From Corallococcus aberystwythensis (GTDB lineage Bacteria > Myxococcota > Myxococcia > Myxococcales > Myxococcaceae), in the NCBI RefSeq assembly GCF_003612165.1, contig NZ_RAWK01000089.1, positions 1 to 32,310 of the forward strand: 32,310 nt of DNA, written 5' to 3'. Numbering within the stretch: the first letter of the stretch is position 1; every line of letters begins with the position of its first letter. Shown piece by piece: positions 19,609-20,935 of this stretch. The notes under the pieces were generated by a model, which ran no database searches, had not been told where the DNA came from, and saw only the letters and a list, made by a program, of their open reading frames with translations. The position numbers and the translations under genes were made by a program.

Positions 19609-20298
19609 TCAGCCGCGGGCGGCGCGGGCGTCGCGGCCCTTCGCGCGGGCGGCCTTGGAGAGCAGGTCGCTGCCCTTCTCCTCGCCCTTCATCCACGCCT
19701 TCATCGCGGGCACCACCTGCTTGCTCCAGGCGCGGCTGGCGCGCACGTTGAGGAACTCCTGCACCAGCGCGTCTACCAGGGCGGAGAGCTGTTCGGTCAG
19801 CTCCAGCCGCTCCGTGAGCTGATCATCCTCTTCCTCTGTCATGAGCGCGGGCAGCTTGGCGGCGCGGATGTCCAGGAACTCGGCATCCAGGGTGACTTCG
19901 TATTCGCGCTCGCTGTGTGACACGCGCAGCCGCGCCTGGGACACCAGCAGGCCTCGGTCCAGCGAGTGGCGCACGTTCTCCGAATAGGGCGCCAGCGTGC
20001 CCTTGGCGCTCATCTCCGTGACGTCACCGGCCACGCCGCGCAGCACCACCTTGCCCAGGTAGAGGACGACGACGCCCGCGCCGTCATGCTCCACCAGGGG
20101 GTCGCCCGACTCCGAGCGCCACAACAGCCACGTCAGGAACTCGCGCCCCAGGTAGGCCCGGCCGCGCAGCAGCTGTTCGCGCGCCTTGCCCTTTTCGACT
20201 TCGGCTTCGTCCTTCTCCTCCTCCGTGGCGACGCCGTCGATGCCCACGTCGCCCCGGGCGAACGCCGCCTCTTCCCTCGCCTGCTCACGCTTCGCCAT
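19609..20298 (-). CDS. rdgC: RdgC-like recombination-associated protein, C-terminal portion (separate ORF or frameshifted)
   Basis: ATG at 20298 with a strong GGAGGG SD. EFLTWLLWRSESGD ... LVSQARLRVSHSEREYEVTLDAEF ... LSALVDALVQEFL align with the C-terminal half of E. coli RdgC (from memory). It overlaps the upstream N-terminal ORF by 14 nt in a different frame. Confidence 0.55.
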   Translation of the reverse strand: MAKREQAREEAAFARGDVGIDGVATEEEKDEAEVEKGKAREQLLRGRAYLGREFLTWLLWRSESGDPLVEHDGAGVVVLYLGKVVLRGVAGDVTEMSAKGTLAPYSENVRHSLDRGLLVSQARLRVSHSEREYEVTLDAEFLDIRAAKLPALMTEEEDDQLTERLELTEQLSALVDALVQEFLNVRASRAWSKQVVPAMKAWMKGEEKGSDLLSKAARAKGRDARAARG

Positions 20299-20935
20299 GG
20301 GTGCCCTCCACCGAAGCCGTCGCCGGCAGGTCCAGACCAATGAGCTCCGCCGTGGGGCCCAGGGCCTTCTCGTCGATGCCCGCGCGCTGCGCCATGGACG
20401 CGGGCGTGATGCCAATCATCTTCACCGCCAGGGCGCCTTCCAGCGCCACGGCGATCTCATCCACCGTCTTGCGGGACGCGGCCCAGATCTGCACCTGCTG
20501 CGTCTTCAGGTTCCACGTCACGTCCAGCGTGCTGGTGCGCGGCACCGCGCGCTGACGCAACAGCTGCTTGAGCTCCGCGCGCTGCTTGTTCTTCTCCGCG
20601 CGGGCAGGCGGGCGGCCGTTCTCGTTGGCGAAGGCGGCGGACCACTTGTCCAGCTCCGACTTCATCATCGACGCGGGGACTTTGAGCGTGTCGATGCGGA
20701 AGGCGAACAGGGCGTACTCGCCATAGAAGAGGTTTCCGGTGGCGAACTCGGAGGCCTCCGGGTTCTCCAGCTCCACGAAACCGGCGGCGCGCTCCTCCTC
20801 GGAGCGGCGGTCGATGGGCTCGAACGCATGGGACTTGAGTCCCTTGGTCAGCCAGCGCTTGACGTCGGACGGCGCATCCTTGGCCGGCTCGGTCCGGAAG
20901 CGCGAAAAGGTCACTGCACCACGTAGGACAGGCAT
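20285..20935 (-). CDS. rdgC: RdgC-like recombination-associated protein, N-terminal portion
   Basis: MPVLRGAVTFSRF... at the start and the mid-region QRAELKQLLRQRAVPRTSTLDVTWNLKTQQVQIWAASRKTVDEIAVAL resemble the RdgC N-terminal two-thirds. The start is uncertain (ATG at 20935 or 20959; neither has a clear SD). The track ORF 20285..21631 upstream of this point is non-coding-like. Confidence 0.55.
   Translation of the reverse strand: MPVLRGAVTFSRFRTEPAKDAPSDVKRWLTKGLKSHAFEPIDRRSEEERAAGFVELENPEASEFATGNLFYGEYALFAFRIDTLKVPASMMKSELDKWSAAFANENGRPPARAEKNKQRAELKQLLRQRAVPRTSTLDVTWNLKTQQVQIWAASRKTVDEIAVALEGALAVKMIGITPASMAQRAGIDEKALGPTAELIGLDLPATASVEGTHGEA

Follow-up and report, generated by a model that had tools for sequence, protein, structure and literature searches.

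The DNA analyzed here is a stretch of 32,310 nucleotides (nt) from Corallococcus aberystwythensis (contig NZ_RAWK01000089.1, positions 1 to 32,310; hereafter, the window), and our subject is a pair of overlapping open reading frames (ORFs) on its minus strand that together resemble RdgC, a recombination-associated and nucleoid-associated DNA-binding protein (Pfam family PF04381; structures 2OWL from Escherichia coli and 2OWY from Pseudomonas aeruginosa). In E. coli and P. aeruginosa, RdgC forms a ring-shaped dimer that binds double-stranded DNA through its basic central hole and inhibits RecA (PMC1885664, PMC2965237). In the sequence of the window, ORF1 extends from 20935 to 20285 and encodes 216 amino acids (aa), while ORF2 extends from 20298 to 19609, encodes 229 aa, and is read in the +1 frame relative to ORF1. 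The ATG of ORF2 (20298-20296) stands 11 nt ahead of the TGA of ORF1 (20287-20285), and the two genes share a 14-nt dual-coding overlap, ATGGCGAAGCGTGA (20285..20298, minus strand), that holds both the ORF2 start and the ORF1 stop. A Shine–Dalgarno (SD) sequence for ORF2, GGAGGG, is found inside the coding sequence of ORF1 (20304..20309, minus strand), 5 nt before the ATG. A first-pass annotation of this DNA, which had proposed two ORFs in different frames with a 14-nt overlap and a GGAGGG and ATG located 11 nt before the upstream stop, is borne out on each of these points. The G + C content at third codon positions (GC3) reaches 0.89 in ORF1 and 0.91 in ORF2, which is consistent with real coding in both frames in a high-GC genome.

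Conservation of the gene pair across Myxococcota

At a threshold of E ≤ 0.001, 284 homologs of ORF1 and 743 homologs of ORF2 were found, and the best 120 in each case were listed. The listed ORF1 homologs measure 199–297 aa (nearly all 206–241 aa) and start with MPVL or MPIL, as does the ORF1 of the window (MPVLRGAVTF), and the listed ORF2 homologs nearly all measure 223–232 aa. Lengths are fixed in both families, and identity among homologs ranges from 52% to 97% for ORF1 and from 66% to 95% for ORF2. Many of the listed ORF1 homologs and GenBank relatives are named “recombination-associated protein RdgC,” whereas ORF2 is a “hypothetical protein” in every source listed, as are all the named ones among its 120 listed homologs, none of which has a Pfam domain.

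With the ORF2 profile, we then retrieved 80 loci from genomes of Myxococcota, covering Corallococcus, Myxococcus, Pyxidicoccus, Citreicoccus, Archangium, Cystobacter, Hyalangium, Vitiosangium, and Anaeromyxobacter along with metagenome-assembled genomes (MAGs) of the phylum. All 80 loci have an ORF1 homolog just ahead of the ORF2 homolog and on the same strand. In 79 of them, we could locate at the junction a stop for the first gene and a start of its own for the second, the exception being locus L072. The overlap measures 14 nt in 60 loci, 11 nt in five, 8 nt in five, and 4 nt in two (GTGATG), and is replaced by a gap of 1 nt in two further loci and by a gap of 3–6 nt with an in-frame stop in five, locus L061 among them. 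Most of the 80 junctions also present an SD-like GGAGG(TG) at the same distance before the ORF2 start. One aberrant junction comes from Cystobacter fuscus strain NCWS (L061:3985-4001), in which ORF1 stops early and no overlap is left; it is probably an indel error in the assembly, since another strain of the species, Cbf 10 (L064), shows the standard 14-nt overlap. Finally, four distant ORF2-like genes follow, after gaps of 2–37 nt, a gene of 205–235 aa with a Pfam RdgC match (weak in two cases), and in a fifth case the preceding gene, of 238 aa, overlaps by 4 nt and is related to ORF1 by hhalign (probability 99.4).

The first-pass annotation had offered four explanations without choosing between them, namely a genuine two-gene split, a frameshift pseudogene, a programmed −1/+1 frameshift, and a sequencing indel, and had suggested looking at whether orthologs are single ORFs of about 440 aa. 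The relatives display the same two-ORF organization, with a conserved overlap, and the genuine two-gene split is the explanation that holds. That a normally single ORF had decayed into a pseudogene, or had been broken by an indel in sequencing or assembly, could have been suspected from the fact that the window is a draft contig built from shotgun reads, from the existence of single-chain relatives of 346–437 aa in metagenomes, and from the aberrant junction of C. fuscus. However, the identical architecture recurs in dozens of species from several genera, in complete genomes as well as in assemblies made independently of one another, both products are intact and conserved at the identities and fixed lengths given above, GC3 is close to 0.9 in both frames, and ORF2 keeps its start codon and its SD across the relatives, so that we accord this explanation next to no probability.

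Programmed +1 (or −2/−1) frameshifting within the 14-nt overlap, which would yield a single fused RdgC-like protein of ~445 aa, has in its favor that ORF2 lies in the +1 frame, that an SD-like GGAGGG within ORF1 stands ahead of its stop in superficial resemblance to prfB, that the overlap sequence is conserved in the 60 loci, and that single-chain relatives exist. Yet the frame relation varies between lineages, with offsets of 0 (in-frame stop), +1, and +2 and gaps of 1–37 nt among orthologs, and the overlap contains neither a slippery heptamer nor a homopolymer run; at GCG-TGA-G, moreover, the P-site tRNA would be unable to re-pair in the +1 frame. The SD is found 5 nt before a conserved start (ATG or GTG), which is the spacing of initiation, and ~17 nt from the stop, when this last distance is ~3 nt in prfB. 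The conservation of the overlap is in turn accounted for by dual coding, since the same nucleotides specify the end of ORF1 (HGEA followed by the stop) and the start of ORF2 (MxKRE), and the single-chain relatives have a different, shorter linker that does not correspond to read-through of the junction. On this basis, we regard frameshifting as very improbable. Altogether, the stop in each placed locus, the conserved start and SD, and the varying frame relation exclude the other three explanations (indel, pseudogene, and programmed frameshift), and the two-gene RdgC-like arrangement is conserved across the phylum. Such a layout is shared with the overlapping, coupled gene pairs of bacteria (ATGA or longer), which likewise combine a stop–start overlap with a downstream SD inside the upstream gene; its one unusual trait is that a 14-nt overlap has been so deeply conserved, with the final four residues of ORF1 (HGEA) and the initial five of ORF2 (MxKRE) constrained at once.

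Domain content of the two products

The membership of ORF1 (20285..20935, minus strand) in the RdgC family is supported by Pfam, by its homologs, and by hhalign. Indeed, its score against PF04381 (E = 8.9e-10, 38.8 bits) exceeds the cutoff of 25 bits, but the match (residues 29–170; 20426..20851, minus strand) covers only positions 22–157 of the 298 in the profile, and the alignment of the ORF1 family with E. coli RdgC by hhalign spans residues 8–169 (probability 97). In P. aeruginosa RdgC, the center domain is formed by residues 1–73 and 121–167, the tip by residues 74–120, and the base by residues 168–306, with a five-stranded antiparallel sheet and four helices, one of them long (PMC1885664). 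Comparing the extent of these matches with these domain limits, ORF1 corresponds to the center and tip. Among viral protein families, matches to PHROGs were obtained only for ORF1 and for the N-terminal half of the fused form. One of these families, phrog_13439 (unknown function, profile of 181 positions), matches residues 72–169 of ORF1 (E = 9.6e-06) and resembles a stand-alone protein of the center/tip type; phages may thus also carry RdgC halves made of center and tip only.

The case of ORF2 (19609..20298, minus strand) is different, in that it has no Pfam match even at E ≤ 1 and nothing relevant in NCBIfam. Its AlphaFold model (mean predicted local distance difference test score [pLDDT] of 78) displays a helix, an antiparallel sheet, and a long C-terminal helix, and most of the 10-residue blocks between residues 51 and 200 have a mean pLDDT of 82–95, with a dip to 63 at residues 91–100. 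A conserved core at residues ~45–205 (19684..20166, minus strand), delimited by pLDDT, by profile positions, and by identity to the single-chain relative P0244 described below, opens with the helix LGREFLTWLLW, and these same profile positions are common to all distant relatives. Judging from the predicted structure, this core is the equivalent of the base domain (about residues 168–306 of RdgC), by fold and not by sequence; comparison of the modeled structure is the sole decisive link from ORF2 to RdgC, all sequence routes having failed or given non-significant results. The RdgC-like blocks that the first-pass annotation had seen in both parts are therefore upheld for ORF1, through Pfam, whereas in ORF2 they are not found by sequence and the RdgC nature appears at the level of the fold. 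Likewise, the proposed division into an N-terminal two-thirds and a C-terminal third should be replaced by about half and half.

Between the two domain blocks lies a segment of ~85 aa with no counterpart in E. coli RdgC, composed of residues ~179–216 of ORF1 and ~1–49 of ORF2. It is highly charged and net acidic (19 D/E vs. 12 K/R), so the acidic insertion of about 80 aa reported at first is real. Its ORF2 part includes a charged N-terminal extension, REQARxEAAFxRGDxGxDGxATEE... (residues 1–44; 20167..20298, minus strand), which is conserved in 16 aligned relatives, with residues 4–27 nearly invariant (invariant columns from R4 to E27), and which is predicted to be disordered (pLDDT 47–57). 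The extension is missing in distant split forms such as P0282, which starts 8 residues before the LGREFL helix. Because only the first five codons of ORF2 are constrained by the overlap, the remainder of this peptide must be conserved for another reason, and it possibly serves docking; the ORF1 tail and the ORF2 N-terminal peptide could then plausibly be docking elements that take the place of a covalent link.

Together, ORF1 and ORF2 supply a complete center, tip, and base fold, distributed over two chains of 216 and 229 aa, where RdgC holds all three domains in one polypeptide of ~300 aa; the two products make up one complete RdgC fold, and the genes part at the boundary between center and base. 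We consider it very likely that the pair is an RdgC homolog encoded as two overlapping genes, cut at this boundary, whose products rebuild an RdgC-like protein. The initial identification of the pair as an rdgC homolog is in that sense confirmed, for ORF2 on the grounds of structure instead of sequence blocks.

Single-chain relatives and genomic surroundings

An exhaustive profile search with ORF2 gave 1,067 representatives at E ≤ 0.001, of which the best 150 were classified: 104 are stand-alone proteins of 160–265 aa, and 19 exceed 340 aa and carry an ORF2-like part at their C-terminus. The natural single-chain relatives, of 346–437 aa, consist of an ORF1-like half followed by an ORF2-like half. 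Ten long proteins were scanned with Pfam, and nine of them have an N-terminal RdgC match (above the 25-bit gathering score in six), always limited to the first ~160 positions of the profile. In P0244 (392 aa), residues 1–197 are 45% identical to ORF1 and residues 218–384 are 60% identical to ORF2, the halves being joined by a 20-aa linker, and the model of the whole protein reaches a pLDDT of 86.7 and a predicted template modeling score (pTM) of 0.85. The distant stand-alone base-domain proteins with a named source come from MAGs of Myxococcota or Myxococcales, plus one MAG labeled Pseudomonadota and one labeled Planctomycetota. In a crude tree (neighbor-joining on saturated BLOSUM distances), single-chain forms are scattered among split forms, which, as far as such sequence distances go, hints at repeated fusion or fission in the base-domain family.

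One recurrent single-chain form, P0391, was found on 11 contigs. On the metagenome contig L081 (84-5152), and in the same manner on L082 and L083, it lies directly downstream of genes for a YqaJ exonuclease, RecT, and a 722-aa ATPase with SMC_N/AAA_23 domains; on L081, a helix-turn-helix protein is encoded in between, and many small unannotated genes come after P0391. These surroundings look like a phage or prophage recombination module. The module of YqaJ, RecT, and SMC-like ATPase links the family to recombination, and this is the only contextual support for such a role. Relatives of P0391 and of the sequences in alignment A1 were absent from the IMG/VR scans, and neither P0391 nor ORF2 had a tblastn match in 50,697 phage genomes, so the phage link comes only from the gene content of L081–L083.

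Two further relatives, P0319 (309 aa) and P0323 (305 aa; from a Myxococcales MAG, MCA9539697.1), have the ORF2-like base domain at their N-terminus, followed by an acidic, proline-rich tail of ~130 aa with DDD[IV]PPWE motifs. These motifs resemble the DDDIPF tip at the C-terminus of the single-stranded DNA-binding protein (SSB), by which genome-maintenance proteins are recruited.

On the chromosome of C. aberystwythensis, the pair is flanked in the window by a GDSL lipase gene and by a divergently transcribed gene for a PBP4-type peptidase. Only Corallococcus, Myxococcus, and close relatives share this gene order, the peptidase being present at 21 of the 80 loci and the lipase at seven. An ORF of 287 aa (17706-18569, plus strand), downstream of the lipase gene and convergent with it, starts with a signal-peptide-like stretch, contains several cysteines, and has no Pfam match at E ≤ 0.001. 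A scan around the gene pair yielded no promoter-like site and a single terminator-like site, inside the downstream lipase gene, which is no more than in shuffled controls; the window has no tRNA gene and no Rfam match. A reading of the pair as a defense system was dropped, as there was no meaningful PADLOC match.

Proposed assembly and implications

How the two products might work together can be conceived from the known RdgC structures. ORF1 provides the center and tip (finger) domains and ORF2, translated from its own SD and ATG inside the end of ORF1, provides the base domain. The overlap could ensure translational coupling and thereby roughly equal amounts of both products, which would join non-covalently into an RdgC-like protomer. 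Two such pairs could then form an (ORF1)2(ORF2)2 ring, in which tip/center contacts between the ORF1 chains would be the equivalent of interface A and a merged beta-sheet between the ORF2 chains the equivalent of interface B. On the model of RdgC in E. coli and P. aeruginosa, the ring would surround double-stranded DNA and act as a modulator of RecA-dependent recombination. Assembly of the two coupled products as an RdgC-like ring is, on this analogy, the most likely outcome, and the biology of the pair is probably ordinary recombination control.

Several points weigh against this reading. The NCBIfam equivalog and subfamily models of RdgC (NF001462–NF001465) score 35.2 bits at best, so far under their cutoffs of 227–489 that the pair does not rank as an equivalog of the E. 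coli protein, from which it may have diverged in function. A search of PDB sequences with the ORF2 profile returned 0 matches at E ≤ 10, and the comparison of the ORF2 family with E. coli RdgC by hhalign is non-significant (E = 0.66), as is that of a 103-sequence ORF2 profile (E = 0.15), which aligned residues 92–157 of ORF2 to residues 203–263 of E. coli RdgC, the expected base-domain region. The binding of ORF1 to ORF2, the ring, the binding of DNA, and the effect on RecA are all properties that we infer by analogy. Finally, the chromosomal neighbors, the GDSL lipase and the PBP4-type peptidase, offer no functional clue, since their synteny is limited to close relatives.

ORF2 might instead be an independent base-fold protein with a task separate from that of ORF1, such as a homodimer that binds DNA or serves as an adaptor, and no split ring would then exist. 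RdgC base domains can dimerize alone via interface B (PMC1885664), P0319 and P0323 (~305 aa) combine an ORF2-like domain and a long acidic tail with no fused ORF1 part, phrog_13439 is an apparent stand-alone protein of the center/tip type, and the ORF1–ORF2 association is itself something that we only infer. We nonetheless hold this alternative to be unlikely and favor two products that rebuild an RdgC-like protein.

The comparison with other proteins of the same fold underlines where the pair stands apart. Like the RdgC-like proteins of the “RdgC histone” operons of Bacillus and Halobacteria (Schwab et al. 2024, PMC11390915), which are ~18% identical to RdgC, it couples an RdgC-like fold with a divergent sequence outside Proteobacteria; in those proteins, however, one chain carries everything, with a further small domain at each end, and neither these domains nor the histone-fold and transmembrane partners of their operons have a counterpart at the pair in the window. 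The RexA protein of phage lambda and the Iml3–Chl4 and CENP-L–CENP-N kinetochore proteins also share the RdgC fold (PMC11077077), but the likeness of ORF1 and ORF2 to them is far weaker than to RdgC, and both modules are present on each of their chains, whereas ORF1 and ORF2 carry them on separate chains. No description of a split RdgC was found in the literature searched, the coverage of which is incomplete, and the only divergent RdgC-like lineage that we found reported is the single-chain one of the Bacillus and Halobacteria histone operons.

The RdgC described to date is a single chain that forms a homodimeric ring, and how this ring opens for loading onto DNA is still debated. In this regard, a split between center and base that extends across a phylum implies that the RdgC fold tolerates, or exploits, separate subunits, and it provides ready-made half-molecules. 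We tentatively suggest, while finding it rather doubtful, that the split is functional and not neutral: a ring of four subunits would have two extra non-covalent joints and possibly a regulated gate for loading onto or release from closed DNA, and the ORF2 N-terminal peptide would act as a latch or offer a partner, RecA or SSB for instance, a place to dock.

For annotation, the gain is that more than 1,000 “hypothetical proteins” covered by neither Pfam nor NCBIfam models (743 close homologs, 1,067 representatives, and 1,309 profile matches) could be named as RdgC base-domain subunits, while the upstream “RdgC” annotations in Myxococcota designate half-proteins. The example also calls for caution before overlapping, out-of-frame halves are declared a pseudogene. 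Were the split indeed functional in the way suggested above, the base-domain family would be a newly annotated family with a history of repeated fusion to its partner and separation from it, and the RdgC of Myxococcota would be a naturally “opened” form, suited to dissecting the loading of the ring onto DNA.
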